Shown here: one piece after another, positions 2,551-30,675 of the stretch
Numbering within the stretch: position 1 is the stretch's first letter
Layout of the letters: each line of letters starts with the position of its first letter
Assembly: GCA_016840465.1 (NCBI GenBank)
Contig: JAEOSH010000007.1
Span: 30,001-62,000, forward strand
Direction of reading: 5' to 3'
From: Candidatus Baldrarchaeum yapensis
GTDB taxonomy: Archaea > Asgardarchaeota > Baldrarchaeia > Baldrarchaeales > Baldrarchaeaceae
Length of the DNA: 32,000 nt
Position numbers and translations under genes: made by a program
Notes under the pieces: generated by a model
Databases searched by the model: none
The model's input: the letters and a program-made list of their open reading frames with translations, nothing else
Told to the model about the DNA's origin: nothing

Positions 2551-3827
2551 TACGGACACACGTGGAACTTGTCTCCAGGCGCAGGACAGTATGCCTCGAT
2601 GCCATAAATCTCCCTTAACTCGTTAGCCAACCCAATGGTCGACTCCTCATCACCATGAACCGTGAAAACAGTTGCACCATTGCATACTTTAGTTAACATG
2701 GAAAGTAGTTCGGTCCGGCCCGAGTGAGATGACAATTCAAAGTATCTTATTTCCGCCTTTACCTCCTTTTCCTTTCCACCAATTCTTATCTTCTTCGTCT
2801 CCAGGATTTCCCTGCCTGGCGTCCCCTTAACCTGATATGAAACGTAGAATAGCGCACTAGTCGGGTCGTTGTATATGTACTTTAAGTACCAGTCAGCAGA
2901 TCCTCCAACCAACATGCCTGCCGGTGAAACTATGACGCTGGGGCTTGAAATTACCTTATACCGCTCGTTTGCATCCTGTATCCATTTCACGCTTTTAAGG
3001 GCCTCGACCAGAAGATTGTAATCCTTCACAGCCTCCGGATGTTGTAGTAGTATTCTACTCGCGTGTCTTGCCATCCCGTCAAGAACAACTCTTCCATCGA
3101 ACCCGTATTTTCTGAAAATACACAGAACCTCCTGTGACCTGCCAACCGAAAATGCGGGTATCAGCACCACGCCGCCTCTTTCCAAAACTTCTTTAGTGGC
3201 CTCTATAAGCTTTCTCTCCTCCCTCTTCCGTGGCGGATGATCTCTAAGCGCGTATGTGCTCTCAGTTATTATTACATCGACGTGTCCGATCTCCGTATCC
3301 GCAGGCCTTAGCAGTTGGGTCTCCCTGGTGTTTATATCCCCGGTGTACCAGATTCTCACCCCATCAATATCGAGTAATATCGATGCGCTACCCGGTATGT
3401 GCCCGGCGTCGAGCAATTTTACTCTTATCCTATCATTAATGTTGTACCACGTGTTCGGATTCAGGAGAATGGCATTGTTGCGCATCAGCTTGACTTCTCT
3501 CTTACTGAACGGCAGCGGTTCTCTTGCGACATTGAACATGTCATAGATTAGGAGTTCCGTAAGGTCGAGGGTTGCAGGGGTCATTATCACGGGTACTTCT
3601 GAAAAGTTAAACAGCAGTGGTATTGCCCCACTATGGTCAATGTGGGCGTGAGTTAGTATTACTGCATCCAGATGCACGACGTCGCATGGTAGTGGCCATT
3701 CTATCTTTTTAGAGGGTGTGGCACCATAATCCAGCAAAATTCTTCCTTCTTCACACTCGACAAGTATTGCAGAGCATCCTACTTTTCTCGCGCCACCAAG
3801 AAACCTTAACGTGACCTCTTTCTTCAT
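2550..3827 (-). CDS. Beta-CASP metallo-beta-lactamase ribonuclease (aCPSF-like, no KH domains)
   Basis: LTHAHIDH, AGHIPGS, YTGD, ESTY, SSH and VHGD motifs. Starts at MKKEVTLRFLGGARKVG (ATG 3827). Confidence 0.88.
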   Translation of the reverse strand: MKKEVTLRFLGGARKVGCSAILVECEEGRILLDYGATPSKKIEWPLPCDVVHLDAVILTHAHIDHSGAIPLLFNFSEVPVIMTPATLDLTELLIYDMFNVAREPLPFSKREVKLMRNNAILLNPNTWYNINDRIRVKLLDAGHIPGSASILLDIDGVRIWYTGDINTRETQLLRPADTEIGHVDVIITESTYALRDHPPRKREERKLIEATKEVLERGGVVLIPAFSVGRSQEVLCIFRKYGFDGRVVLDGMARHASRILLQHPEAVKDYNLLVEALKSVKWIQDANERYKVISSPSVIVSPAGMLVGGSADWYLKYIYNDPTSALFYVSYQVKGTPGREILETKKIRIGGKEKEVKAEIRYFELSSHSGRTELLSMLTKVCNGATVFTVHGDEESTIGLANELREIYGIEAYCPAPGDKFHVCP

Positions 3828-3961
3828 TTTTCTCTCCACTATGGGTTTTCGCTCTTTGTTGAAAGGAGAGACTATGAATTTAAAGCTTATGATAGCAAGA
3901 ACACCGGACGGCAAAATAATCAGATCAGCGTGCTCGGAATGGACTAGGGTGTGAGAAAAAG

Positions 3962-6900
3962 TTACCAGAATATAGAGGGAAGGTATTCCCAGTATTCATC
4001 GAGTGCCAGCACCTGCATTTTTCCAAAACCTCCAAGTTCCCTGTACTCCCTGATAGCTCTCACTATCGCCGCCGCGAGTTCGAGATTCGTAACGACTGGA
4101 ATGTTGAACTCAACGGCCTTTCTCCTTATGAGATACTCATCCTCCAGCATTGCGGAGTACTTTTCCAGCGTTATACTGGAGGGTATATTTATTACTAGAG
4201 AGATCTTCCGATCTACAATGTAATCCCATATATTGGGCTTCCGTTCCGGCTCACTTATCTTGTATAGCACGTGTGCGTTTATCCCATGCTCCCTTAATGC
4301 CTCAGCGGTATGCTCTGTTGCGTAGATCTTAAATCCTAAACTCTCCAACTCCTTCGCTATCGGGATTATCGCCTTCTTAAGTTCCGGTCCACCGACCGAT
4401 ATTAATACCGACCCGCCGTCTACCGGAACCTTAAAACCAGCCGCAAACAGCGCCTTTATCAGCGCCTCGGAAAAGTGGAACCCGAAGCAAGCGACTTCCC
4501 CGGTGCTCACCATTTCAACTCCCACTACGGGGTCCGCGCCATCCAGTCTCATGAATGAGAACTGCGGCACCTTCACGCCCACATAAGGTAGGTTCTCAAA
4601 GTTATTCGGAATATTGAGTTCTCTGAGTTTCTTGCCAAGAATGACTGCGGTGGCAACCTCCATCAGGTTAACTCCTATTGTTTTACTTACGAACGGCATG
4701 CTCCTAGACGCCCTCAGATTGCATTCTATTACGTACACGGTGCCGTTCTTGACCAAGTACTGTATGTTGAAGGGTCCTCGAATGCGTAAGGCTCTTGCAA
4801 TCTTCCACGTGTACTCCCTTATCTTGTCGAGTATCTCGGATGAAATCGTCTGCGGCGGAATACTCATAGTTGCATCTCCGCTATGCACACCGGCATTTTC
4901 CACATGCTCTATTATCGCACCTATGAACACATCCTCCCCATCAGATACCGCGTCGACCTCGACCTCGCGTGCACCCATTATGAACTTGCTAATAACAACC
5001 GGATGCTCCTCCGAAACCTTTGCGGCCTCCATAAGATACTTCCTTAATTGCGTCGGCGTATAAGCGACGTTCATCGCGGATCCGGATAATACGTAACTGG
5101 GCCGCACGAGCACCGGATACCCTATCTTCCTAGCGAACTCCTCCGCATCCTCTATACTTGTGAACTCACTCCATGGAGGTTGTGGAATTCCCAACTCATC
5201 TAGCAGTTTGCTGAACTTTGCCCTATCCTCGGCCCTATCTATGCTCTCCGCCGATGTGCCTAAGATGTTAACACCAGCCCTCGCTAACTTTAACGCTAAG
5301 TTGTTCGGAATCTGTCCTCCCACCGATAAGATTACGCCGAGAGGCCCCTCCTTCTCCACGATGTCAAGCACCCTTTCAACGGTCAGTTCCTCGAAATAAA
5401 GTTTGTCGGTGATGTCATAGTCGGTTGAAACAGTTTCGGGGTTGTAATTTATTATGATGACCTCGTCTATGCCGTTCCTCTTGAGCGCCCACACCGTGTT
5501 AACCGAACACCAGTCGAATTCAACAGATGACCCTATTCGGTAAGTTCCGGAACCGAGCACTATGACCTTTTTCTTTTCGTTCGAAAAGGATATGTCGTCC
5601 TCCTCTCCACCATACGTTACATATAAATAATTTGTCTTTGCGGGCCACTCTGCGGCGAGAGTGTCTATCTGCTTAACAACGGGAACTACACCGAGCTCCT
5701 TTCTTAACCTCCTAACCTCCTCCTCTTTCATTCCCCAGCATCGTGCAATCTGCGCATCACTGAATCCCAGGCGTTTAGCCTCCTTTAACAACCTTTTGAG
5801 GAACTTTTTATCTTTAAATTTCTCCCTAGGAATTGCCCTGAGCCTTCTCTCCATGTCAACTATATTCTTTATCCTGTAAAGGAACCACTTGTCTATGCCA
5901 GTCAATTTGTAAATTTCGTCAATCGAGAGCCCCATTTTGATTGCCTTAACTATCTTAAAGAGACGCTCGTCCGTCGGGTTCTTTAAAACATCAATTACCT
6001 TCTCAAGTGGCTCGGGCTCGTCATCATCGGGGTTGCATACGAGGCCTACCTTTCCTATGTCCAGCATTCTGACAGCTTTCTGAATAGCCTCTTCGAAACA
6101 CCTGCCTATCGCCATTACCTCTCCTACGCTCTTCATCTGGGTCCCTATCCGCCTGCTAACTCTACGGAACTTTCTGAAGTCCCATCTCGGTATCTTCACA
6201 ACAACGTAATCAAGGGCAGGCTCAAAGCACGCCGTGGTGATTCCCGTCACTTTGTTCAACAGTTCCGGAAGCGTGTACCCTATCGCGAGTTTTGCAGCAA
6301 TATATGCGAGGGGATATCCCGTCGCTTTCGAGGCAAGGGCTGAACTTCGTGAGAGGCGCGGATTAAGTTCTATTGCTCGATAATCCTCCGAACTTGGACT
6401 GAGAGCAAACTGTATGTTGCATTCGCCGACTATTTTTAATTCACGAACAATCCTTATACTTGCCGCGCGTAAGAGATGATATTCCGTATTTGTGAGAGTC
6501 TGCGAGGGTGCTATGACTATACTTTCCCCGGTATGTATTCCCATGGGATCAAAATTCTCCATATTGCATACGGTTATGCAGTTGTCCTCATAATCCCTAA
6601 CAACCTCGTACTCTATCTCCTTCCACCTGTCTAAATACTCCTCCACTAGTATCTGTCCGATCATGCTTTGGGCAAGTCCTCTTCTGGCTATCTCTATGAG
6701 TTCCTCCCTATTGCGGGCAACACCCGATCCCTTACCACCGAGAGCATAGGCCACACGAACTATAACAGGATACCCTATCTCTTCCGCAATCTCAACGGCT
6801 TCCTCGACGGAAAATGCCGATCTGCTTTTCGGTATCGGAACATTGGCTCTCATCATCGCCTGCCTGAAAAGTTCCCTGTCTTCCGCTATTTTTATTGATT

Positions 6901-7261
6901 CTATCGAGGTTCCCAGAACCTCAACACCGTACTTCTCAAAGACTCCCCTCTCTGCGAGTTCTACTCCACAGTTAAGGGCCGTCTGTCCTCCAAACCCGAG
7001 TAGTATTCCATCGGGTCTTTCTTTCTTTATGACCTCTTCCACGAACTCCGGACTCACGGGCAAAAGATAAACCTTATCGGCGAGCCTAGGATCCGTCTGG
7101 ATCGTTGCAACGTTCGGGTTCACGAGTATGGTCTTTATACCCTCCTCCTTAAGGGCCTTCAACGCTTGGCTTCCCGAGTAGTCGAACTCCCCTGCCTCTC
7201 CAATTTTTATTGCGCCGCTTCCCAGTATTATTACCTTCTTTATCCACTCAAACCTAGGCAT
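3962..7261 (-). CDS. carB: Carbamoyl-phosphate synthase large subunit
   Basis: 1099 aa. GSGAIKIGEAGEFDYSG, duplicated ATP-grasp halves, NPRLSRSSALASKATG and a C-terminal MGS domain. Confidence 0.98.
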   Translation of the reverse strand: MPRFEWIKKVIILGSGAIKIGEAGEFDYSGSQALKALKEEGIKTILVNPNVATIQTDPRLADKVYLLPVSPEFVEEVIKKERPDGILLGFGGQTALNCGVELAERGVFEKYGVEVLGTSIESIKIAEDRELFRQAMMRANVPIPKSRSAFSVEEAVEIAEEIGYPVIVRVAYALGGKGSGVARNREELIEIARRGLAQSMIGQILVEEYLDRWKEIEYEVVRDYEDNCITVCNMENFDPMGIHTGESIVIAPSQTLTNTEYHLLRAASIRIVRELKIVGECNIQFALSPSSEDYRAIELNPRLSRSSALASKATGYPLAYIAAKLAIGYTLPELLNKVTGITTACFEPALDYVVVKIPRWDFRKFRRVSRRIGTQMKSVGEVMAIGRCFEEAIQKAVRMLDIGKVGLVCNPDDDEPEPLEKVIDVLKNPTDERLFKIVKAIKMGLSIDEIYKLTGIDKWFLYRIKNIVDMERRLRAIPREKFKDKKFLKRLLKEAKRLGFSDAQIARCWGMKEEEVRRLRKELGVVPVVKQIDTLAAEWPAKTNYLYVTYGGEEDDISFSNEKKKVIVLGSGTYRIGSSVEFDWCSVNTVWALKRNGIDEVIIINYNPETVSTDYDITDKLYFEELTVERVLDIVEKEGPLGVILSVGGQIPNNLALKLARAGVNILGTSAESIDRAEDRAKFSKLLDELGIPQPPWSEFTSIEDAEEFARKIGYPVLVRPSYVLSGSAMNVAYTPTQLRKYLMEAAKVSEEHPVVISKFIMGAREVEVDAVSDGEDVFIGAIIEHVENAGVHSGDATMSIPPQTISSEILDKIREYTWKIARALRIRGPFNIQYLVKNGTVYVIECNLRASRSMPFVSKTIGVNLMEVATAVILGKKLRELNIPNNFENLPYVGVKVPQFSFMRLDGADPVVGVEMVSTGEVACFGFHFSEALIKALFAAGFKVPVDGGSVLISVGGPELKKAIIPIAKELESLGFKIYATEHTAEALREHGINAHVLYKISEPERKPNIWDYIVDRKISLVINIPSSITLEKYSAMLEDEYLIRRKAVEFNIPVVTNLELAAAIVRAIREYRELGGFGKMQVLALDEYWEYLPSIFW

Positions 7262-8501
7262 GTCTCCTCACCATTCTCAAGAACTCGTCGAAGAGGTGGC
7301 TCGTATCAACCGGACCCGGCGACGCCTCAGGATGAAACTGTACTGAGAATGCAGGCATCTTCTTATGCCGAATGCCCTCAATCGTCTTGTCGTTCACGTT
7401 TATAAACCACAACTCTAGATCTGTGCCCTTAAGGGAGTCCATGCTGACGGCGTAGCCGTGATTCTGTGAGGTGATAAAGCATCTTCCGCTTTGAATTTCC
7501 ATACATGGCTGATTTTGGGATCTATGGCCATATTTGAGTTTATAGGTATCAGCACCCATCGATAAGGCGAGTATCTGGTTTCCCAAACATATTCCGAAGA
7601 AAGGAATTCCCCCCTCTACGATCTCTCTCACAGCGTCTACCGTCTCCCTCACCATCTTCGGATCTCCCGGACCATTGCTTGCAAGTACACCGTCAGGCTT
7701 GAACTCCAATATTTCATCGGCGGGCATGTCGTATGGGGTTCTTATAACCTCCGCTCCCCGTGCAAGAAGACTTCTAATAATATTTAGTTTAACACCGCAA
7801 TCTATCACCACTATCCGATACTTTGGCCTCGGAACGGTGTGAATCACGGGTTCCTTGGGACTCACATATTTTACCAGATTCTCAGTGTTCGGATCCTCCA
7901 TTTTTCTCAGTTTCTCAAACAATTTCTCGAAAGGAATGTCATCATCCGAGTCGAAAAATGCAATCATCCCCTTCATTACGCCGTATTCCCGAAGCCTCCT
8001 CACAAGCGCCCTCGTATCTATACCTTCTATCCCTGGTATCCCCTCTTCCAGTAGCCAGTCGTGTAGTGACCGACTCGATGACCAATGACTTGGTTGCTTG
8101 CATAATTCGTTAACTACTAAGCCGCGTACCTTTATTCCCATGGACTCAAAATACCGCGGAAGTCCGTACTCATCCTTCACGGAATATGACGGAACTCCAT
8201 AATTTCCAATGTGAGGATATGTTAAGACGAGTATCTGCCCGTAATATGAAGGATCCGTTAATGTTTCGGGATACCCTACCATTCCAGTATTAAAGACGAC
8301 CTCTCCATATGTGTCGGTGGGGGAGCCGAAGGCCTTGCCTATAAAAAAGCTTCCGTTCTCTAATAGTAGTACGGCGACCTTCTCCGTATCATCCTCGTAA
8401 TAGCCCAGAGGAATGTCACCAGCCGTCAGGGCGAAACCCTCAGAGACATAGGAAGGTACTTTTTTAAGGTTTTTGGTATCTTTCGGATCATAATGGCACA
8501 A
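7254..8501 (-). CDS. carA: Carbamoyl-phosphate synthase small (glutaminase) subunit; true start uncertain
   Basis: GEVVFNTGMVGYPETLTDPSY, SNGPGDP, GICLG (catalytic Cys) and VQFHPEASPGP. Overlaps the carB start by 8 nt. Confidence 0.96.
   Translation of the reverse strand: MCHYDPKDTKNLKKVPSYVSEGFALTAGDIPLGYYEDDTEKVAVLLLENGSFFIGKAFGSPTDTYGEVVFNTGMVGYPETLTDPSYYGQILVLTYPHIGNYGVPSYSVKDEYGLPRYFESMGIKVRGLVVNELCKQPSHWSSSRSLHDWLLEEGIPGIEGIDTRALVRRLREYGVMKGMIAFFDSDDDIPFEKLFEKLRKMEDPNTENLVKYVSPKEPVIHTVPRPKYRIVVIDCGVKLNIIRSLLARGAEVIRTPYDMPADEILEFKPDGVLASNGPGDPKMVRETVDAVREIVEGGIPFFGICLGNQILALSMGADTYKLKYGHRSQNQPCMEIQSGRCFITSQNHGYAVSMDSLKGTDLELWFINVNDKTIEGIRHKKMPAFSVQFHPEASPGPVDTSHLFDEFLRMVRRHA
8460..8475 (-). 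promoter_or_regulatory. Putative BRE/TATA element for carAB
   Basis: The minus strand reads AAAAACCTTAAAAAA (purine-rich BRE-like stretch followed by TTAAAAA), about 90 nt upstream of the conserved CarA N-terminus. Confidence 0.45.
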
Positions 8502-8951
8502 CTAAGTTACATATGTATCATTGGAGGGAATGAAGACGGTATTTGTGACCGAGGCAAGCAATTTAGCACGTACCATGTATAACATAGAGGCAATGTTCAC
8601 GTTCCTCTTAAACTCGATAACTTACCTAAAATCGGAATCGAATATTCACAGTATCCATTTTCTTGATACAGATTGTTATTCTGCAAATGAGAGCGTATCC
8701 GCGTATCATATGGCGATGGACTTTAAATCGGGAAAAACATTCCTATTGGAGTTTATTATCGTGAGAACATATGCCCCGCTTTGGTTAGAGGCACGACTCT
8801 TTAAACGATCTTTTGGGGAAATAGTCACGGTAGTATGCGGAGCGTTTTATAGAAAATTCCAAGCAATATCGTTACCATTCGTGTGTATGAATCCCCATTT
8901 GGAATCCTTTAAGCGAAATTTATTTTTTGGTGATTTCCTTAATATAATCTG

Positions 8952-9374
8952 GTGTTGAAATTGCTCGATGAACTGGACAAGCGGATTATCGAAATATTAA
9001 AAGAGGATGCTAGGACGCCTTTCACCACCATAGCTAGCAAGTTAGGTATCTCTGAAGCAGCGGTAAGGAAGAGAGTCCGAAGGCTTGTCGACTCCGGTGT
9101 CATAAAGAAATTCACTATAGAAACGTCTATGGAGGGTGGCGCGCAGGCTATTGTAATGTTATCCGTCAATACAAAAATTCCGTGCCCCGAAATATCGAGG
9201 GAAGTGAGAAAAATAGAAGGAGTACGTGCAGTTTATGAGGTATCAGGCGAATACGATATTGTGGTGTTTCTGAACGGTCCGGATAATGATGCGCTCAACC
9301 GTATGATCGATGAGATAAGAAAAATAAATGGCGTTCTTAAGACGACAACAATGGTAATATTGAAGGCGTGGTGA
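8952..9374 (+). CDS. lysM: Lrp/AsnC-family transcriptional regulator, LysM-like
   Basis: N-terminal HTH (LDELDKRIIEILKEDARTPF...SEAAVRKRV). The RAM domain with PCPEIS, YEVSGEYD, NRMIDEIR and ILKAW closely resembles crenarchaeal LysM as I recall it. Confidence 0.8.
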   Translation: MLKLLDELDKRIIEILKEDARTPFTTIASKLGISEAAVRKRVRRLVDSGVIKKFTIETSMEGGAQAIVMLSVNTKIPCPEISREVRKIEGVRAVYEVSGEYDIVVFLNGPDNDALNRMIDEIRKINGVLKTTTMVILKAW

Positions 9375-10285
9375 GGCCGCTGAAGCCTCATGCACGGGAA
9401 TACCTAAAAGCAGCAGCGGAGATCGCAGAGAGAGTTCTCAAAGAGGCAGAAAAAATAATAAAACCGGGAATAAAGATAATTGAAATCTGTGAAAAACTAG
9501 AACAGTTGATAAGAAGGCTAGGAGGGCGCCCCGCGTTTCCAGTGAATATTTCAATAAACGATATCGCGGCCCATTATTCCTCCCCTCCCCAGGATCCAAA
9601 AAGAATACCTCACGGATCCCTCGTTAAGGTGGATATCGGGGTACACGTTAATGGCTATATTGTCGATATCGCAAAAACTCTAAACCTCGGAAGCGGCCTG
9701 ACGGATCTAATAAAGGCAACTGAGGACGCGTTGGAGGCCGCAATCGACCACATCAAGGCAGGTGTTAGGGTTTCGGAGATAGGTGCAGTGATAGAAAGAG
9801 AAATTAAAAGATATGGTTATAATCCGATAAAAAACCTTGCTGGTCATGCAATGGAACGTTATAATCTTCATGCTGGACTTTCAATACCAAATGTTTCGTC
9901 ACCACGCCCTTTGGGCATACTAGCCCCCAAGCTGCATGAAGGAATGATAGTGGCAATAGAGCCATTCGCCACCACAGGAAAACGAGCATATGTTGTTGAC
10001 GATCGCCCCATCTCGATATTTAAACTCACTGAGAAAAAGCCCAAAACAAGGGACGAGTCACGAATTTACTCTTTAATATGCAGGAGATGCCAGATGTTGC
10101 CTTTCTCATTAAGATGGTTTGACGAGATAACCGGATCCGGAAAAGCGGTGAAAACATTTACGAAAATGATATCAGAAGGGATAATTTATGCATATCCCCC
10201 ACTTAGGGAAGTCGATAAGAATCCTGTGGCTCAGGCAGAAACCACCGTGATCGTACATAAAAATGGAGCCGAAAGACTTGTATAG
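9368..10285 (+). CDS. map: Methionine aminopeptidase type II
   Basis: AAHYS, KVDIGVHVNGYIVDIA, NLAGH, AIEPFAT and AQAETTV. The last conserved His in the usual EHT appears as ETT. Confidence 0.92.
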   Translation: MVRPLKPHAREYLKAAAEIAERVLKEAEKIIKPGIKIIEICEKLEQLIRRLGGRPAFPVNISINDIAAHYSSPPQDPKRIPHGSLVKVDIGVHVNGYIVDIAKTLNLGSGLTDLIKATEDALEAAIDHIKAGVRVSEIGAVIEREIKRYGYNPIKNLAGHAMERYNLHAGLSIPNVSSPRPLGILAPKLHEGMIVAIEPFATTGKRAYVVDDRPISIFKLTEKKPKTRDESRIYSLICRRCQMLPFSLRWFDEITGSGKAVKTFTKMISEGIIYAYPPLREVDKNPVAQAETTVIVHKNGAERLV

Positions 10286-13706: not shown

Positions 13707-14285
13707 TCAACGACTTCGTGCTCGCCATTCAAATGCAATTACCACAAACATTATGAAAATGAAGAATGCAACCAGCATCGGAGTGAACGTCTTGACAATA
13801 TATCGTACTGCAAGCATTTTCATATCCTCAATATTTACTATCGTTCTTCGTGCGAATACCAGCAGTATCACATATGCGCCATACGCTGCAAACACGGGCC
13901 ATGCCAAGTACCCGCCTCCTAGAAGCATAAGTAAAATTGCGACGCCCAACTTGCTAAACGTTGGGTCGAGTACCTGATGGGGCAATTCTTCATCGGGGTC
14001 GTATTGAAAATAGTATGTTAGTAGGAACGGTGGGATTTCAAGCCTAATAAGGGAAATTGCTTGAAGAGCCGCCTGTATTGGCAGTAAAACGGCGCAAATA
14101 ACAAGCGCATAAAGAAACAACATGTCAGAGAGCGAAGATGGAGGGAAAATATGGGGAAATGCCTCAGTAATTCCTATAAATGCCAATCCTATGAAAACAA
14201 CAGATATTATATGGATGACAGCGGCCTTAAATGCGTGTTTAAGGTTCCTTATCTTTACTTCCTTTTCCTCTTCGACCCCCAGCAT
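13707..14285 (-). CDS. Integral membrane protein of unknown function
   Basis: 192 aa with about 4-5 hydrophobic segments; sits tightly within the serS gene run. Confidence 0.7.
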   Translation of the reverse strand: MLGVEEEKEVKIRNLKHAFKAAVIHIISVVFIGLAFIGITEAFPHIFPPSSLSDMLFLYALVICAVLLPIQAALQAISLIRLEIPPFLLTYYFQYDPDEELPHQVLDPTFSKLGVAILLMLLGGGYLAWPVFAAYGAYVILLVFARRTIVNIEDMKMLAVRYIVKTFTPMLVAFFIFIMFVVIAFEWRARSR

Positions 14286-15852
14286 TTCCCCTGCCCCCAG
14301 GCGGCCATGTTATCAATTTGGGAACTTCGGGCAATTCATCCCCAATGTACTTCTTTATTTCATCGGGCCATTCGTTGAATTCAAAACCCCATCTCGTCAG
14401 GAAGACATATGCCCATCTGGACGGACCAATACCAGCGCACCCTGTCCATATGGGTCTATTTGCACGGTCTCTAAACCTGAACCTCTTAGCGTAAAAGTCC
14501 GTATGCACATGGAACGATGAAATTTCCAGCTCCGCCTCTGGTCGGCTCTTCGTTTGGAAAGGCAATATTACCGTGAGATCATATGTTTTCACGAATTCAG
14601 TACTTTCTTCTTTTTCAACTTTACCAGCATGTTCCAAATACACGGCAGTTGTTGCATCAACCCTCCACTCTAGGTCAAAGATTTTGTCAATGATTTCAAC
14701 GGCCCGTTCAAGAACTTGATCACGTATTTCAATGCATTTTTCGGGAGTTGTTAGCCATGTAAACTCTATCCTGTGGAACTCATTAAGCCTCTCTAAACCT
14801 TTCAGCCCACCTCCTTCCCAGCGCCATGTTGGCCCATTTCTGTCAAAGAACTTTATGGGGTTCTTTTCAAGTTCGCTTGCGTCCACAATCTCGTTACGGA
14901 AGAGCTCGTAGAACGGCTCACATTGGGCATACGAGAGCGCGTATAATGGCGGTCTCAGTTTTTCCTTGAGCAGATCAACTGGTATTTCATCGGTTATTTC
15001 AACGAGGTCTATGAAATCCTCAAAGTCCTCGACATTCCTAGAAATCGGTGGACAGACGAATAGCATCTCGTGCGGAATTGCAAGTTGCCCCTTTCTCTTC
15101 TCAACATCAAGGGGTATCAACCTAGGAAATATTACCTCGATGAATCCGAGTGGTTTTGCTATCCTGTCTATCACAAGTTGCTCTATAGCTCTTATTAATG
15201 CAGTGAAGGGAGGCAACAATTGCCAGACACCGGCACCCGGATATTCTTTAACCCATCCGAGCCTCACAGCCTCTTCTGTCGGATCGCTCCTTAACTTGTA
15301 CTTATGGAGTCTGGGCTCGCTTCTCCTGACTGTTCTTACGAACTCCGCCTTGCCTCTTATTCTCTGTGCAATGATCTTTTCTTCAAGTCTTCTGAGCAGT
15401 CTATCAATGTAATTATCGCGTAGCGCTTTCTCATCGATATCTTCAAGTTCAAGGTACACCTTTTTTCCGTCAAATCTAAGCTCCTTAACGAAAGGCAACC
15501 TTACGGGCTCTAAAGGCTCCTCCGAAACCTCGGTCTCTATTTTAAATTCCTGCACCTCTATGTCCTTTACCCCAATCTTGTACTTTCTACCTAGATTTGC
15601 AGCGAGAACGTTCTTTAATCGAAGAATCGCAACATGGGACCTGACATATCGCCCACTCATTATGTGGACCCATATTCCATCGTCTAATATTTTCCAGTCA
15701 ACAATTCTTGGGGCCTCCTCTCTTTTGTCTGCAGGACAACCCTTAAGAAATTCCTTTTCCTCAACTTTTGCAATAAGATCGGCGATGAAGTCCTTAGCAT
15801 CCTCGGGTATCTGCCTAGTGAGTTTAAGAACAGCCTTAAGATCAAATTTCAC
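14239..15852 (-). CDS. serS: Seryl-tRNA synthetase, atypical methanogen-type (SerRS2)
   Basis: N-terminus SGRYVRSH...LGRKYKIG, then VCPP, YAQCEPF, FFDRNG, ERLNEFHRIE and WTGCAGIG. These match the zinc-dependent methanogen-type SerRS, including the Cys/Glu/Cys Zn ligands. Confidence 0.85.
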   Translation of the reverse strand: MKFDLKAVLKLTRQIPEDAKDFIADLIAKVEEKEFLKGCPADKREEAPRIVDWKILDDGIWVHIMSGRYVRSHVAILRLKNVLAANLGRKYKIGVKDIEVQEFKIETEVSEEPLEPVRLPFVKELRFDGKKVYLELEDIDEKALRDNYIDRLLRRLEEKIIAQRIRGKAEFVRTVRRSEPRLHKYKLRSDPTEEAVRLGWVKEYPGAGVWQLLPPFTALIRAIEQLVIDRIAKPLGFIEVIFPRLIPLDVEKRKGQLAIPHEMLFVCPPISRNVEDFEDFIDLVEITDEIPVDLLKEKLRPPLYALSYAQCEPFYELFRNEIVDASELEKNPIKFFDRNGPTWRWEGGGLKGLERLNEFHRIEFTWLTTPEKCIEIRDQVLERAVEIIDKIFDLEWRVDATTAVYLEHAGKVEKEESTEFVKTYDLTVILPFQTKSRPEAELEISSFHVHTDFYAKRFRFRDRANRPIWTGCAGIGPSRWAYVFLTRWGFEFNEWPDEIKKYIGDELPEVPKLITWPPGGRGNAGGRRGKGSKDKEP

Positions 15853-18565: not shown

Positions 18566-19744
18566 TCAGAACAACTTATTCGAGAGTATATGGACACACG
18601 ACACCTGGGGTCCTGCACCGCCAATGTTGTGCTGTAATCCGATCTCTGCACCCTCAACTTGCCTTTTTCCAGCCTCGTTTCTGAGTTGCCAGAAGATCTC
18701 AACTATCTGCGCGGTCCCAGTCGCGCCTATCGGATGTCCATGAGACTTCAATCCACCACTCGGATTCACTGGCAACTTTCCGCCAAGGTATGGTATTCCC
18801 TCCTCTATGAACTTCCCTCCCTCGCCCTTCTTGCAGAATCCAAGATCCTCATAGCTTATCAACTCGGTCGGTGTGAAGCAGTCGTGCACCTCCGCGAAGT
18901 CTATGTCCTTAGGCTCTATCTTTGCCATCTTATACGCTTGTCTTGCTGCCTCAACTGTAGGTTCCATGGTAACATAAGACTTCCTTAAATGTATCAGGAA
19001 GGGGTTCGTTGCAAGCCCACTTCCCTGGACATACACTGGTGCATCCGTGTACTTCTTCGCAAGGTCTGCTCTACATACTATAACGGCGGCGGCTCCGTCA
19101 GTTATCGGGCAACAATCCAGAAGGTGCAGAGGCCACGAAACTATCGGCGACTTTAGCACATCTTCGACCTTTATTTCCCTTCTAATATGCGAATAAGGAT
19201 TGAGAGCCCCATGCTTGTGGTTCTTTACCGCAATCATTGCAAAATGCTCTATTTTCGTACCGAACTCGTGCATGTGGCGTGTGGCGTAAAGAGCAAAGGC
19301 GGAAGGCATCGTTATTGCGTAAACCCATGGATAGTGAGGAACCGCACGCCCTATTGCCTCTATGAGTCCACCTGGTCTATCTAACATCTTTTCGCAAGAA
19401 ATGACCAGTACCACATCATAAAGCCCAGCGGCAACAGCCATACATGCGTTTCTAAAAGCGTCACTACCAGTTGCGCACGCATTCTCGACGCGTGTTATCG
19501 GTTTTCCTACGAGCCCTGTGACCTCGGCAACAGTGGCCCCAGTTGCCGGTCCCATAACCGTACCGTACCACACTGCCTCGATTTCCTTCTGTGGGTCGAT
19601 ACCCTTATCAACGCTGTTTATACAGTTGATATAAGCCTCAGCAAGCATATCCTCGAAACTCTTGTCGTAATGTTCCCCGAAGGGTATCATCCCCGCTCCT
19701 ACTACCGCAACCTTATTCCTCAGGGATCTTATCTCGATCGACAT
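18566..19744 (-). CDS. Archaeal thiolase (acetyl-CoA C-acyltransferase, SCP2/AcaB type)
   Basis: VENACATG (catalytic Cys), EVHDCFT, NPSGGLKSHGHPIGATG and HNIGG. Confidence 0.93.
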   Translation of the reverse strand: MSIEIRSLRNKVAVVGAGMIPFGEHYDKSFEDMLAEAYINCINSVDKGIDPQKEIEAVWYGTVMGPATGATVAEVTGLVGKPITRVENACATGSDAFRNACMAVAAGLYDVVLVISCEKMLDRPGGLIEAIGRAVPHYPWVYAITMPSAFALYATRHMHEFGTKIEHFAMIAVKNHKHGALNPYSHIRREIKVEDVLKSPIVSWPLHLLDCCPITDGAAAVIVCRADLAKKYTDAPVYVQGSGLATNPFLIHLRKSYVTMEPTVEAARQAYKMAKIEPKDIDFAEVHDCFTPTELISYEDLGFCKKGEGGKFIEEGIPYLGGKLPVNPSGGLKSHGHPIGATGTAQIVEIFWQLRNEAGKRQVEGAEIGLQHNIGGAGPQVSCVHILSNKLF

Positions 19745-19758
19745 ATGATCACCTCACA

Positions 19759-20145
19759 CTACCTTATCGGTCTAAATTTATACCCGTATTCCACCCTTCC
19801 CTCTTCCTCGCTTATTCTCCTAAACACTATCTCCACCGGCATATCGACCTTCACTTCCTTGGGATCACATTCTGTCAGGTACCCAGTCAAACGGGCGCCA
19901 TCTTCCATCTCGACAACCGCATAAATTGCCGGAGTTTCAGCGCCCCGCGGCATTATGTAGCTTATTGTGTAGGTAACGATTTTTCCTTTCCTTGCAACCT
20001 CAACCTTTTCGAGGTCTGTGCTTCCGCATTCTATACAGATTTTCCTAGTTGGAAACATTATTTTCCCGCATTTCTTGCATTTTGAAGCTTCTAACCTATA
20101 AATCGATGGACTCAGCCTCCAAAAATCTGGAAATGCGGTTGCCAT
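19759..20145 (-). CDS. DUF35 Zn-ribbon/OB-fold acyl-CoA-binding protein
   Basis: CKKCG...PTRKICIECG, followed by an OB fold (YAVVEMEDG...VDMPVEIVFRR...YGYKFRP). Confidence 0.93.
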   Translation of the reverse strand: MATAFPDFWRLSPSIYRLEASKCKKCGKIMFPTRKICIECGSTDLEKVEVARKGKIVTYTISYIMPRGAETPAIYAVVEMEDGARLTGYLTECDPKEVKVDMPVEIVFRRISEEEGRVEYGYKFRPIR

Positions 20146-20151
20146 ACCTTA

Positions 20152-21213
20152 TCACCTCATCCCGTACATCATTTGGTATAATTTCAGAAATCTCAAATAT
20201 GTCGGGTAATCGATGTACGTCTTCTTGTTGATGTACGTGTTGACTATTTTCTGCCTCTTAGCCTCTATGGCATCAGTCACCTTAATTGAAAAAGCGTCAC
20301 TACAGCCGCTACCATACGATGCCATCAATATCCTTTCTCTCGGTTTCGCCATGTCGAGTACGGCCGCCAGTGCTATTAAAACCGATGCACATCCGCAATC
20401 TCCGATGAACTGCGCAATGGGCATCATTCCGGCCATTATGTGAGCAGGTGTTAACCCGATCTTTGGTGCAAGTCTCATCAAGTAACCTCTAGGGTCAGGC
20501 GGTTCTGTGAACACGGCATACTTGAAATCGGATGGCTTGAGATTCAGTTTCTCATATAGGCTCTTGCACGCTTTCTCCACATGCATTATGTAACCAAACT
20601 CCCTCGAGAACCTTGACAAGGAAACCCTTGGCACTTGGTCCTCGACGTTCTTCCAACGCTCTGTGAAGTCAGTAGAATATGTGGCGAACCCCTCGATTTC
20701 TGCAATGATGTTGTCCTTGCCCAGAACTAGCGCAGCGGCTCCCGCACTCATTGTGAACTCCATGCCTTCCCTATCGCCAGGTGGTGGCACCAGCACATCA
20801 GTCCCTATCACGAGGCCATAATTTACTTCTCCCGATCTTATTGCGTTTACGCATGCTATAAGAGCGGCAGTACTGGCTCTCGCCGATCCTGTGAAGTCTA
20901 TCCTCTGTGCACTCGCACTTGCTCCGACAACTTCGGCAATTATCGTTGATACTTGCTTTTCCAAATACGGGCTGCTTGTTGTTCCGACGTATACTGCACC
21001 AAGTTCACTGCCATCAATTTTTGCATGCTTAATTGCGTTTAATGCCGCTTCCACGGCCATCGTGACAGCGTCCTCGTCATAATACGGCACCGTTTTTTCG
21101 CCTGGTGGCTTCATTGGTAGCTTCCAGGCCTCAGCGATGTCTGACAATTTTATCCTGCACCAGGGAATATAGACGCCGTATCCAACAATGCCCGCCTTAG
21201 GTCCATCAGACAA
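20152..21213 (-). CDS. HMG-CoA synthase-like protein lacking catalytic residues
   Basis: Collinear with archaeal HMGCS (AGIVGYG.YIP, EK.VP..DED, SYGSG, SDAF, YIDY), but GSESHPY is GTTSSPY, EFACK is TGSAR and FHQPN is FTEPP. TTG start at 21213 follows a GGTGA SD. Confidence 0.85.
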   Translation of the reverse strand: MSDGPKAGIVGYGVYIPWCRIKLSDIAEAWKLPMKPPGEKTVPYYDEDAVTMAVEAALNAIKHAKIDGSELGAVYVGTTSSPYLEKQVSTIIAEVVGASASAQRIDFTGSARASTAALIACVNAIRSGEVNYGLVIGTDVLVPPPGDREGMEFTMSAGAAALVLGKDNIIAEIEGFATYSTDFTERWKNVEDQVPRVSLSRFSREFGYIMHVEKACKSLYEKLNLKPSDFKYAVFTEPPDPRGYLMRLAPKIGLTPAHIMAGMMPIAQFIGDCGCASVLIALAAVLDMAKPRERILMASYGSGCSDAFSIKVTDAIEAKRQKIVNTYINKKTYIDYPTYLRFLKLYQMMYGMR

Positions 21214-21262
21214 TTTGATCACCGGAATTACATGACTAGGCAGAAAAAATGTCATAATCGCA

Positions 21263-21276
21263 TATATAAAGGTTCC
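21263..21276 (-). promoter_or_regulatory. Putative TATA box of the HMGCS-like/DUF35/thiolase operon
   Basis: The minus strand reads GAACCTTTATATA about 50 nt upstream of TTG 21213. Confidence 0.55.
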
Positions 21277-21313
21277 ACGGGTATGCAACTGGCGAAATTT
21301 AGGAAAATAACTT

Positions 21314-22732
21314 TCAACAACGAATATCTCCTTTCCTCAGTTTTATTCGTTCACGAACCTCAGCATATTTTGCAAGCCCGGCTAATGCCTTAACCGCTCT
21401 CTCGGGCGACGGAAACAGCGGAACTCCCTCCTCCTGCAATTTGTTCAAAAACTCCATATATTCCTTCGGGGGTGCCGTTATGGATGCAACTACCGGCTTT
21501 CCGGTCTCTTCTGCGATCTTTGCAAGTTTCCTAAGCGGTGGAAGAACTACTGGATGATACAGCGAGATGAACAAGAGAGCATCGACATTTGGATCCTTTG
21601 CAATGGCATCTAGGCACTTTTCCACGACCAGAGGATTCGTTGTCGAAACAAACCCTAAGTCAACCGGGTTTGATCTTATGGTAACTGGCGGAAGCAACTC
21701 CCCTATGATATTAGTTGTATCTTCCGAAAACTCTGCAACTTCAAGTCCATGTTCATGCAGGAAGTCCAATGCCACCATGGAAGGTCCAGCCTCCTTTGAT
21801 GCGATAGCAACTCTCTTCCCTCTCGGTATTGGGCATAAAGATAGTGCCTTGGCAACGTCAAATAATTCGATACAGCTATTCACGATCACTGCACCATGTT
21901 GTTTCAGTCCTGCAATGTACAATTTGTAATTGCCTGCAAGAGCGCCCGTATGCGATAATGACGCCTTATCGCTAATCGGCATTTTACCAACCTTATAAAC
22001 AACTACAGGCTTACGCTCAGAGGCGTATTCCAATGCAGCAAGGAGTTCACGCGCATTCTCCACCCCTTCTATGTAAAGCGCGATTACTCTCGTCTGAGGG
22101 TCATCAGCAAGATAATAGAGCATATCACTGAAGTCAACGATGCACCGATTACCGAGTCCTATTATCTTTCCGAATCCAAGTCCCTCATTCATTCCATAAT
22201 ACGCAATTATATGGCAGATACCACCGCTCTGACTGACTATTGAGACGTTTCCCCTCTTCACATTGCTCAATGTTGGGGTAAATGAAGCATTCATTTTTGC
22301 GTGAAGATTGACGATCCCGAATGTGTTTGGGCCGACTATTTTAATCCCATATTTTCTTCCAAGTTTTATTACTTCTTCTTGAAGCTTTATTCCCTCAGCT
22401 GATCCCGTTTCCTTGAAACCTGCACTTATTATAACGGCGGCTCGTACACCCTTCTCTCCGGCTTCTTTTACCACGGAGGGAACAACTCTCGCCGGCGTTG
22501 TCACCACTATCATATCAACTTCTTCTGGAATGTCTTTTATCGATTTGAAGCCTGGGACATCCTGTACATTTTCGCCTCGTGGATTTACTGCAAATATCCT
22601 GCCCTCGTACCCAGACGTTTTCAAACTCATGACGACATAAAAGCCGAGGTTTTCAAGCCTTGGTGTCGCTCCTACAACGGCTATGCTTCGGGGTTCGAGC
22701 AGGGGCGAATATTCGCTTAATATGTCGGTCAA
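21314..22732 (-). CDS. acdA: Acyl-CoA synthetase (NDP-forming), alpha subunit
   Basis: EPRSIAVVGA CoA-binding fold, ISAGFKE, IVGPNTFG, SQSGG, SHTG (phospho-His) and NPVDL. No ATP-grasp (beta) part. Confidence 0.88.
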   Translation of the reverse strand: MTDILSEYSPLLEPRSIAVVGATPRLENLGFYVVMSLKTSGYEGRIFAVNPRGENVQDVPGFKSIKDIPEEVDMIVVTTPARVVPSVVKEAGEKGVRAAVIISAGFKETGSAEGIKLQEEVIKLGRKYGIKIVGPNTFGIVNLHAKMNASFTPTLSNVKRGNVSIVSQSGGICHIIAYYGMNEGLGFGKIIGLGNRCIVDFSDMLYYLADDPQTRVIALYIEGVENARELLAALEYASERKPVVVYKVGKMPISDKASLSHTGALAGNYKLYIAGLKQHGAVIVNSCIELFDVAKALSLCPIPRGKRVAIASKEAGPSMVALDFLHEHGLEVAEFSEDTTNIIGELLPPVTIRSNPVDLGFVSTTNPLVVEKCLDAIAKDPNVDALLFISLYHPVVLPPLRKLAKIAEETGKPVVASITAPPKEYMEFLNKLQEEGVPLFPSPERAVKALAGLAKYAEVRERIKLRKGDIRC

Positions 22733-22828: not shown

Positions 22829-23479
22829 CTATCTTTTGCTCTCAAGCACCCTAATTATATCGTTAAAAACTTCATCTATGCTCCTCTCTCCATTTATGTT
22901 AATAAGTAGCCCCTTTTCCTCATAATACTTAAGTAACGGCAATGTTTGTTTTCTATAGACCTCTAATCTGTTCCTTATAACTTCCTCTTTGTCGTCATCT
23001 CTCTGATAAAGTTCTCCGCCGCACATATCGCAAATGTTATCCTCCTTGGGAGGGTCGAACATTAAATGGTAGATCTTCCCGCATTTTTTGCAAATTCTCC
23101 GGTATGACAATCTTCTTACGACCTCATCATCTGAAACTTCAAGATTTATCACCGCATCGAGTTTAATGTTCAATCTCCTAAGAAGGTCGTCAAGCGCCTC
23201 CGCCTGCGCCATTGTTCGTGGGAACCCGTCCAGTATGAATCCGTTTCTGCAGTCTTCTCTTTTCAGCCTCTCTTCAATTATTCTGATGATTATATCATCG
23301 GGAACCAGTTCGCCCCTGTCCATGTAGGATTTTGCAAGCTTCCCAAGCTCTGTCCCTCTTGCAACCTCTTCCCTCAATATGTCGCCAGTGGCGATGTGCG
23401 GTATTCCAAAAACCTCCGAAAGCTTTTTCGCCTGAGTCCCCTTGCCGGCGCCCGGCGGTCCGAACAGTATTATTCTCAT
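22829..23479 (-). CDS. adk: Adenylate kinase (bacterial-type, Zn-LID)
   Basis: [41 protein letters not shown] and QRDDD. Confidence 0.96.
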
Positions 23480-29982: not shown

Positions 29983-30675
29983 CTACGGTCCCATGACCTC
30001 TTCCGGCTCCACTTCTATTATTCCAAGCAACTTGCCCATCAATTGATCAACTTTCTTCACGTGAGGCACCATCTCGAGCGTAATTGCCTTTCTTTCCGTG
30101 GGAAAGAAGAATGTTACTTTCCCACATCCAAATATCAAGTACTCGAAAACATCGCTTATTTCAATGTGGTATCTCATGCCAGTGGTCGAAAACCTCTCCA
30201 CCTTTCCGAATAAGCCCACTCTGTGGCTTATCTGATTAGGCTCTATGATCCAATAGTTCCATCTCCTGCTCAGCCATACCAAGAAAAGTATGAATAGCGT
30301 TCCTATTCCTATTGCCAAGAACGCCTCCGGAGAGAACGTTAAATTTAGTCCAAGCAGGGCTTTACCTATAGCTCCTGCTGTTACTGGCATGTAAGGTGAG
30401 AACACTATATATAGCAGGACGATTATGACGATCAAAAATATTAGCGCCAATGTTTTCATTTCATCGAACTCAAACGCCATCACGAGCACGTTAAACAGGA
30501 ATAACGCGATGAAAGCGAGCCCTAAGGTCGTCGCGAGTGTTGGCACGAACCACTCCACGATTCCGAAGATTACTGCCATTACCGCTGATGGAATTATCGC
30601 TATTACCTTAGGGTACGATCTTATGATTATCTTTTCCAACTCTCCCTGCTCTCTTTTTGTCTCAGTAGAACTCAT
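29983..30675 (-). CDS. Membrane protein with C-terminal bacterial PH-like (bPH_2) domain
   Basis: About 4 TM helices followed by NYWIIEPNQISHRVGLFG...DVFEYLIFGCGKVTF. Confidence 0.7.
   Translation of the reverse strand: MSSTETKREQGELEKIIIRSYPKVIAIIPSAVMAVIFGIVEWFVPTLATTLGLAFIALFLFNVLVMAFEFDEMKTLALIFLIVIIVLLYIVFSPYMPVTAGAIGKALLGLNLTFSPEAFLAIGIGTLFILFLVWLSRRWNYWIIEPNQISHRVGLFGKVERFSTTGMRYHIEISDVFEYLIFGCGKVTFFFPTERKAITLEMVPHVKKVDQLMGKLLGIIEVEPEEVMGP

Follow-up and report, generated by a model that had tools for sequence, protein, structure and literature searches.

What might an archaeal thiolase/DUF35/3-hydroxy-3-methylglutaryl-coenzyme A (HMG-CoA) synthase complex do once its synthase (HMGS) can no longer make HMG-CoA? 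The question is raised by a locus of the Asgard archaeon Candidatus Baldrarchaeum yapensis (assembly GCA_016840465.1) on contig JAEOSH010000007.1, of which we analyzed positions 30,001 to 62,000 (the window, 32,000 nucleotides (nt); coordinates without a contig or locus label refer to it). Four minus-strand genes lie head to tail here, encoding the alpha subunit of an ADP-forming acyl-CoA synthetase (ACD-alpha, 21314-22732), an HMGS-like subunit (20152-21213), a DUF35 protein (19759-20145), and an SCP2/archaeal-type thiolase (18566-19744). The last three, referred to here as the trio, bring together the HMGS fold, DUF35, and SCP2-type thiolase that define the tripartite architecture. We propose that they probably encode a 3-oxoacyl-CoA thiolase complex that works in the thiolytic direction, includes an HMGS-fold partner without catalytic activity, and acts as a terminal module of an acyl-CoA fermentation.

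The HMGS-like subunit lacks the catalytic residues of its family. Residues 32-367 align with the HMG-CoA synthase of the solved M. thermolithotrophicus complex (6ESQ), our alignment reference, at 215 bits and with all motifs free of gaps (phmmer against the PDB). Against it, the catalytic Glu of GSESHPY is replaced by Thr (GTTSSPY, 20965-20985), the nucleophilic Cys of EFACKA by Ala (TGSARA, 20875-20892), the His of FHQPN by Thr (FTEPP, 20497-20511), and the Asn of IGNTY by Asp (IGDCGC, 20389-20406), all on the minus strand. A sequence-only reading of this locus had reported an end-to-end alignment with archaeal HMGS and the loss of Glu, Cys, and His; the 6ESQ alignment agrees on both, fixes the exact coordinates, and adds the Asn, which that reading had missed. 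Where archaeal HMG-CoA synthase (EC 2.3.3.10) carries a Glu-Cys-His-Asn tetrad, the window protein therefore reads Thr/Ala/Thr/Asp. Because an archaeal complex stops forming HMG-CoA when these four residues are replaced (Liao et al., Nat Commun 2026, PMC12960953), the subunit is predicted to be incapable of making HMG-CoA by the known mechanism. The family models give a mixed result: the product scores 326 bits against NF003274 (cut-off 244) and 285 bits against TIGR00748, below that model's cut-off of 353. The two Cys residues of IGDCGC were considered as an alternative nucleophile and rejected, being conserved in no relative.

The thiolase (PF22691 and PF00108; NF004720 at 448 bits, above its cut-off) has, as was read from the sequence at the outset, an intact catalytic Cys motif (ENACATG, 19466-19486), VHDCF (18875-18889), and GHPIG (18725-18739), all on the minus strand, and these motifs are likewise intact in every relative examined. 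The DUF35 protein (PF12172 and PF01796) combines a CKKCG/CIECG zinc ribbon with an OB fold. For each subunit the best solved match is the corresponding chain of 6ESQ rather than of the Pseudomonas PhlABC acyltransferase: 215 versus 162 bits for the HMGS-like subunit (PhlA), 270 versus 122 bits for the thiolase (PhlC), and 97 versus 65 bits for DUF35 (PhlB). A prediction of the complex from alignments of the thiolase, DUF35, and HMGS-like subunits scored 0.61, compared with 0.73 for a control, and so speaks neither for nor against binding.

The HMGS-like gene encodes a conserved pseudo-enzyme and is not decaying. A collection of 5.8 billion proteins was searched for its closest homologues; none of the 13 nearest (49-55% identity; one is labelled Bathyarchaeia) has the tetrad, and the resulting 14-sequence clade alignment has a mean column identity of 69%. 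Ratios of nonsynonymous to synonymous substitution rates (dN/dS) among three of these relatives are 0.08-0.12, similar to 0.07-0.13 for the thiolase, although both sets are rough because synonymous sites are near saturation. The gene also has a Shine-Dalgarno-like GGTGATC (21217-21223) 3 nt ahead of its TTG start at 21213 and a TATA-box-like TTTATATA (21263-21270) about 50 nt upstream of that start, both on the minus strand and read from the sequence, with a promoter function for the latter being presumptive. The tetrad-less homologues and the dN/dS values bear out the earlier claim that the reading frame is not decaying. All six closest-clade contigs of sufficient length have the genes in the order HMGS-like, DUF35, thiolase. 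Identity to relatives is highest for the thiolase (70-71%) and lower for DUF35 (47-53%) and the HMGS-like subunit (44-55%), which is the pattern expected if the thiolase holds the catalysis. This nearest clade is known from metagenome contigs alone, so taxonomic statements about it are limited accordingly; among species representatives' contigs we found no close orthologue, the best match being 46% identical and in a Dehalococcoidia metagenome-assembled genome.

If this subunit does not make HMG-CoA, another protein of the organism might be expected to do so. The B. yapensis assembly (96% complete, 100 contigs) contains three HMGS-fold genes, one in the window and the others on the contigs we label C96 and C12. 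The C96 gene, scoring 576 bits, encodes HMGS fused to DUF35, keeps the full tetrad, and lies in a mevalonate cluster (L032:2992-10012), which comprises DUF35 (2992-3381, minus strand), a thiolase (3386-4627, minus), type-2 isopentenyl diphosphate isomerase (IDI2; 5955-7073, minus), mevalonate kinase (7057-8091, minus), and the fusion itself (8492-10012, plus). This is the second, intact HMGS that the sequence-only reading expected elsewhere in the genome. Because it sits among mevalonate genes, and the window locus is unlinked to any, the window trio is best regarded as something other than the mevalonate entry complex, as that reading had held. The C96 thiolase is itself dead, with EIGGVSS in place of ENAC and YGPF in place of HDCF and only GHP kept; a dead thiolase beside a live HMGS is the mirror image of the window locus. 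On C12 (L033:570-6457; L003) a second tetrad-less HMGS-like protein, 501 amino acids (aa) long and fused to DUF35 (TTTPPY, SSLRC, FYAND), is followed by a live PRK06157-type thiolase, with an ACD-alpha (503 aa, two genes away) and a 528-aa open reading frame, both just upstream on the opposite strand.

The remainder of the genome is rich in acyl-CoA genes, with 8 thiolase folds, 9 DUF35 domains, 4 3-hydroxyacyl-CoA dehydrogenases, and about 8 acyl-CoA dehydrogenases. Four thiolases besides that of the window are live, and the highest scores against the PRK12578 and PRK06064 models (568 and 576 bits) belong to a pair on contig C58. There are eight ACD-alpha paralogues (frames of 463-504 aa) and one ACD-beta (ATP-grasp_5, contig C64), which suggests that several alpha subunits with differing acyl-CoA specificities share a single beta subunit.

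Tetrad-less paralogues are not peculiar to this genome. Among 31 Asgard genomes (labelled G, with loci labelled L), 11 carry sub-canonical HMGS-like paralogues. The six that we retrieved, from five genomes, all have an incomplete tetrad; five lack all four residues, and the copy in G030 keeps Cys and has lost Glu, His, and Asn. All six adjoin a thiolase with ENAC, HDCF, and GHP, and five have DUF35 alongside, the contig of the sixth (G004) stopping at the HMGS-like gene. In G015, the trio follows an ACD-alpha in the same arrangement as in the window, within a cluster consisting of an acyl-CoA dehydrogenase, a beta-keto-acid cleavage enzyme, ACD-alpha, HMGS-like, DUF35, and thiolase, with a convergent AMP-forming acyl-CoA synthetase. 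The beta-keto-acid cleavage enzyme (L120:11005-12021; PF05853, 327 bits), flanked by the acyl-CoA dehydrogenase on one side and the ACD-alpha/trio operon on the other, may indicate that these thiolase complexes operate in the setting of acetoacetate or beta-keto-acid metabolism.

We also examined canonical HMGS loci in 21 Asgard genomes (B. yapensis and 20 others, L124-L143), 20 of which have a thiolase gene within reach; in G008, the contig ends ahead of any thiolase. Glu and Cys are present in every canonical HMGS checked, and the His motif is matched in all but G028. The neighboring thiolase has lost its nucleophilic Cys in 7 of the 20 genomes, including B. yapensis and the same-order G001, G002, and G004, where it is replaced by Gly; the replacement is Glu in G005, Asp in G012, and Asn in both of the tandem HMGS and thiolase gene copies of G028. 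The other 13 keep the Cys. With the canonical-cluster thiolase lacking its nucleophile, another thiolase must, on this evidence, supply acetoacetyl-CoA in the order to which B. yapensis belongs, and that of the window is one of five live candidates. NF003274 detected no canonical archaeal HMGS in two genomes of the same phylum (family f9; G011 and G021, 98-99% complete), where its best matches are 490-550-aa frames at 172 and 161 bits; the mevalonate entry enzyme of these genomes must be of another type.

These loci allow the relationship between trio and canonical operon to be assessed. In G015, G025, and G030 a tetrad-less trio coexists with a canonical operon that is fully intact, which argues for an independent role of the trio; conversely, in our search of the 31 genomes no trio was found in G002 or G005, although their canonical thiolases are dead. 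These five genomes argue against strict reciprocal complementation as a general rule, under which every dead canonical thiolase would be accompanied by a trio, and the trio is more than the counterpart of the canonical complex in a divided pathway.

To place the window protein among its relatives, we used a sample of 185 HMGS-fold sequences, consisting of the 150 best representatives at 50% identity, selected matches from the first search, and the three HMGS-fold genes of the genome. Only 30 have the Glu-Cys-His-Asn tetrad. The 155 tetrad-less sequences share features seen in none of the 30 canonical ones, including a Ser directly ahead of the lost Cys (134 of 155; this is the Ser of TGSARA in the window protein), a Gly two residues past the lost Asn (138), Thr at the Glu position (95), and Asp at the Asn position (82). 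Tetrad-less HMGS-like proteins are a large, old, and diverse family that has its own derived motifs. In FastTree (184 rows) and quick IQ-TREE (62 rows) phylogenies, both unrooted and so not fixing the number of tetrad losses, the window protein falls in a small tetrad-less clade, while the C12 paralogue belongs with fused proteins of the 'TLYN' type, which form a large clade. A PhlA-like clade, its rows recognized by signature (CGQD) and length (about 360 aa) and not by name, has 100% support in the Shimodaira-Hasegawa-like approximate likelihood ratio test (SH-aLRT). Its sister group is canonical HMGS, the two being joined with 99% SH-aLRT, and the window clade branches outside both.

The closest known system is PfACAT/HMGS-DUF35 of Pseudomonas fluorescens, a match made on its described residue pattern and activity and not by sequence comparison. 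Its HMGS subunit also lacks the tetrad, its thiolase also has Cys, HDxF, and GHx, and its neighborhood, like that of the window trio, lacks polyketide synthase (PKS) and nonribosomal peptide synthetase (NRPS) genes. It cleaves acetoacetyl-CoA, its sole activity, and forms neither HMG-CoA nor acetoacetyl-CoA (PMC12960953). It differs in its bacterial host and in the fusion of HMGS to DUF35, which are separate genes in the Asgard window (although fused in the C12 paralogue); the window locus is, in addition, linked to an ADP-forming acyl-CoA synthetase. The archaeal complex 6ESQ has the same three components and the same thiolase motifs as the window trio, but with the synthase tetrad gone the channelled conversion of acetyl-CoA to HMG-CoA could not run in the latter, which has no mevalonate linkage. 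PhlABC (PpATase, PDB 5M3K/5MG5) and MucABC (SmaATase, PDB 9VBO/9VBT) likewise consist of a tetrad-less HMGS-like subunit, DUF35, and a catalytic thiolase, and retain the interfacial CoA chamber; however, PhlC and MucB have lost HDxF, a loss that marks these Friedel-Crafts acylases (PMC12960953), and belong to antibiotic gene clusters, whereas the window thiolase keeps HDCF and has catabolic neighbors. The KT/DUF35 pairs of Sulfolobus acidocaldarius and the benzoylsuccinyl-CoA thiolase BbsAB (PDB 7PXP) resemble the trio in pairing an HDxF-containing SCP2-type thiolase with DUF35 to act on acyl-CoA thioesters, but operate without an HMGS-fold third subunit. Multiple KT/DUF35 pairs are reported in Asgard genomes, with no mention of a dead HMGS third subunit (bioRxiv 10.1101/2024.07.05.601840). 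Our literature search found no paper on archaeal tetrad-less HMGS paralogues, the type having been described in bacteria only; the window locus appears to be an archaeal member of this known dead-HMGS/live-thiolase type, and one not yet described in archaea.

Based on these comparisons, the trio would be a paralogue of the archaeal thiolase/DUF35/HMG-CoA synthase complex in which the thiolase is the lone catalytic subunit. The dead HMGS-like subunit would serve as a structural partner, tethered to the thiolase via DUF35 and completing an interfacial CoA-binding chamber. Condensation by a thiolase is thermodynamically unfavorable without a coupled synthase. Because no synthase is present to pull this reaction, flux is expected in the thiolytic direction, with a 3-oxoacyl-CoA (most simply acetoacetyl-CoA) and CoA giving acetyl-CoA and a shortened acyl-CoA. 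The adjacent ACD-alpha, a probable functional partner of the trio, could then act together with the genome's single beta subunit to convert the acyl-CoA products into acids and ATP. The locus would in this way form the end of an acyl-CoA fermentation, fatty-acid or amino-acid derived, and not the entry to mevalonate. We infer complex formation, the scaffold and CoA-chamber role, the reaction direction, and the substrate for the window trio from its sequence. Contigs of the closest clade are consistent with such a module, as a 3-hydroxyacyl-CoA dehydrogenase lies directly upstream and an enoyl-CoA hydratase, MaoC dehydratases, an acyl-CoA dehydrogenase, and a family-III CoA transferase occur nearby; none of the relatives' contigs has a gene pointing to polyketide or aromatic chemistry. 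Of the two activities offered by the sequence-only reading, acyl-CoA thiolysis is much better supported, while acyl transfer to phenolic acceptors is unsupported, as the window contains no PKS or NRPS genes and the neighbors here and in relatives are catabolic.

Several observations weigh against the proposal of a thiolytic module. The ACD-alpha gene is 100 nt from the HMGS-like gene with the TATA-like box between them, so co-transcription is putative, and its adjacency was seen in just two of the trios examined, the window included. No beta-oxidation genes occur nearby on the contigs of two relatives (L114, L115). The derived residues that the dead family keeps near the old active site could point to ligand binding or catalysis instead of a purely structural function. 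The Sulfolobus KT/DUF35 pairs do without an HMGS-fold partner, and do so in fatty-acid synthesis (bioRxiv 10.1101/2024.07.05.601840), which means that the dead subunit may be dispensable and that flux may run the other way.

The rival that survives best, although unlikely, is a biosynthetic one, in which the live window thiolase supplies acetoacetyl-CoA to the live HMGS-DUF35, either through free diffusion or because the two half-dead paralogous complexes assemble together, or acts as the condensing enzyme in CoA-dependent archaeal fatty-acid synthesis. The degenerate motifs of the C96 thiolase, the Cys-to-Gly loss in the three same-order genomes, and the best match of all three window subunits to the mevalonate complex 6ESQ are consistent with this, as is the part played by KT/DUF35 pairs in S. 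acidocaldarius fatty-acid synthesis, several such pairs being present in Asgard genomes (bioRxiv 10.1101/2024.07.05.601840). However, four other thiolases of the genome are live, and the C58 pair scores highest against PRK12578 and PRK06064; the trio occurs where the canonical thiolase is intact and was not found in two genomes where it is dead; the neighboring genes are catabolic and not mevalonate or reductase/dehydratase genes; and condensation would face the thermodynamic barrier noted above. A narrower version, which we consider improbable, would divide mevalonate entry in this Asgard order between two reciprocally degenerate complexes, one with a live HMGS and Cys-less thiolase (C96) and the other with a live thiolase and tetrad-less HMGS (window), co-assembling via their dead subunits or otherwise interdependent. 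Acetoacetyl-CoA for archaeal lipids would then come from the window trio, with the pseudo-subunits as docking adaptors.

With similarly little credence, the HMGS-like subunit may have gained a catalytic or ligand-binding role of its own involving the Ser, Thr, and Gly-Asp-x-Gly loop; it might, for instance, provide a second site for acyl-CoA or act as a regulatory sensor. The family residues are found in most of the 155 tetrad-less sequences, across many clades, and in none of the 30 canonical ones, and purifying selection on the dead subunit is as strong as on the thiolase. On the other hand, the 14-sequence clade alignment shows no invariant Cys, His, or Glu that would take the place of those lost, neither Cys of IGDCGC is conserved in relatives, and divergence has been faster in the dead subunit than in the thiolase; moreover, PfACAT/HMGS-DUF35, PpATase, and SmaATase all place catalysis in the thiolase subunit alone (PMC12960953). 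A Friedel-Crafts C-acyltransferase of the PhlABC/MucABC kind, CoA-independent or acetyl-CoA-dependent and acting on a small non-CoA acceptor, is very improbable: it shares the three-protein architecture and a tetrad-less HMGS-like subunit, with Asp at the Asn position as in PhlA, the second-best solved match, but the kinship with PhlABC that the sequence-only reading proposed did not hold up against the bit scores, the position of the window clade outside the PhlA-like/canonical pair, the HDCF motif absent from PhlC and MucB (PMC12960953), and the lack of any PKS, NRPS, or aromatic-pathway gene in the 32-kb window or on the relatives' contigs.

The locus bears on annotation, evolution, and Asgard biology. 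The window protein passes NF003274 and would therefore be named an HMG-CoA synthase, a name its relatives also carry; where such tetrad-less genes are counted as mevalonate enzymes, the mevalonate pathway is overstated or misplaced in Asgard and other archaeal genomes. The survey that described the bacterial complexes mined bacterial genomes, treated archaeal complexes as mevalonate enzymes, and explained the repurposing of the complex in bacteria by their independence from mevalonate (PMC12960953). The archaeal loci described here suggest that repurposing has occurred in archaea too, by duplication beside a retained canonical enzyme. Thiolase modules tied to ACD and beta-oxidation genes would also bear on how Asgard archaea handle fatty acyl-CoA, a subject relevant to the archaeal-to-eukaryotic lipid transition.

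The trio is tightly packed. The HMGS-like stop is 6 nt from DUF35 and the DUF35 stop is 14 nt from the thiolase, and a GGTGAT ribosome-binding motif precedes all three genes. The longest HMGS-like frame is 20152-21288, but TTG 21213 is the likely start, giving 353 aa, as GGTGATC, the TTTATATA box, and the N-termini of homologues agree on it. The ACD-alpha contains PF13380, PF13607, and PF19045 and matches TIGR02717 at 426 bits; upstream of it lies an adenylate kinase (22829-23479, minus strand; PF00406, 198 bits). The other genes of the window are housekeeping genes. The 537-aa product of one of them (14239-15852, minus strand) is a seryl-tRNA synthetase of the rare 'methanogen type', with a PF18490 tRNA_bind_4 N-domain and a class II core, here in an Asgard genome. 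Elsewhere in the B. yapensis assembly, two actin-family genes (C7:22542-23660 and C70:1317-2393; Pfam Actin, 440 and 312 bits) are consistent with its Asgard origin.

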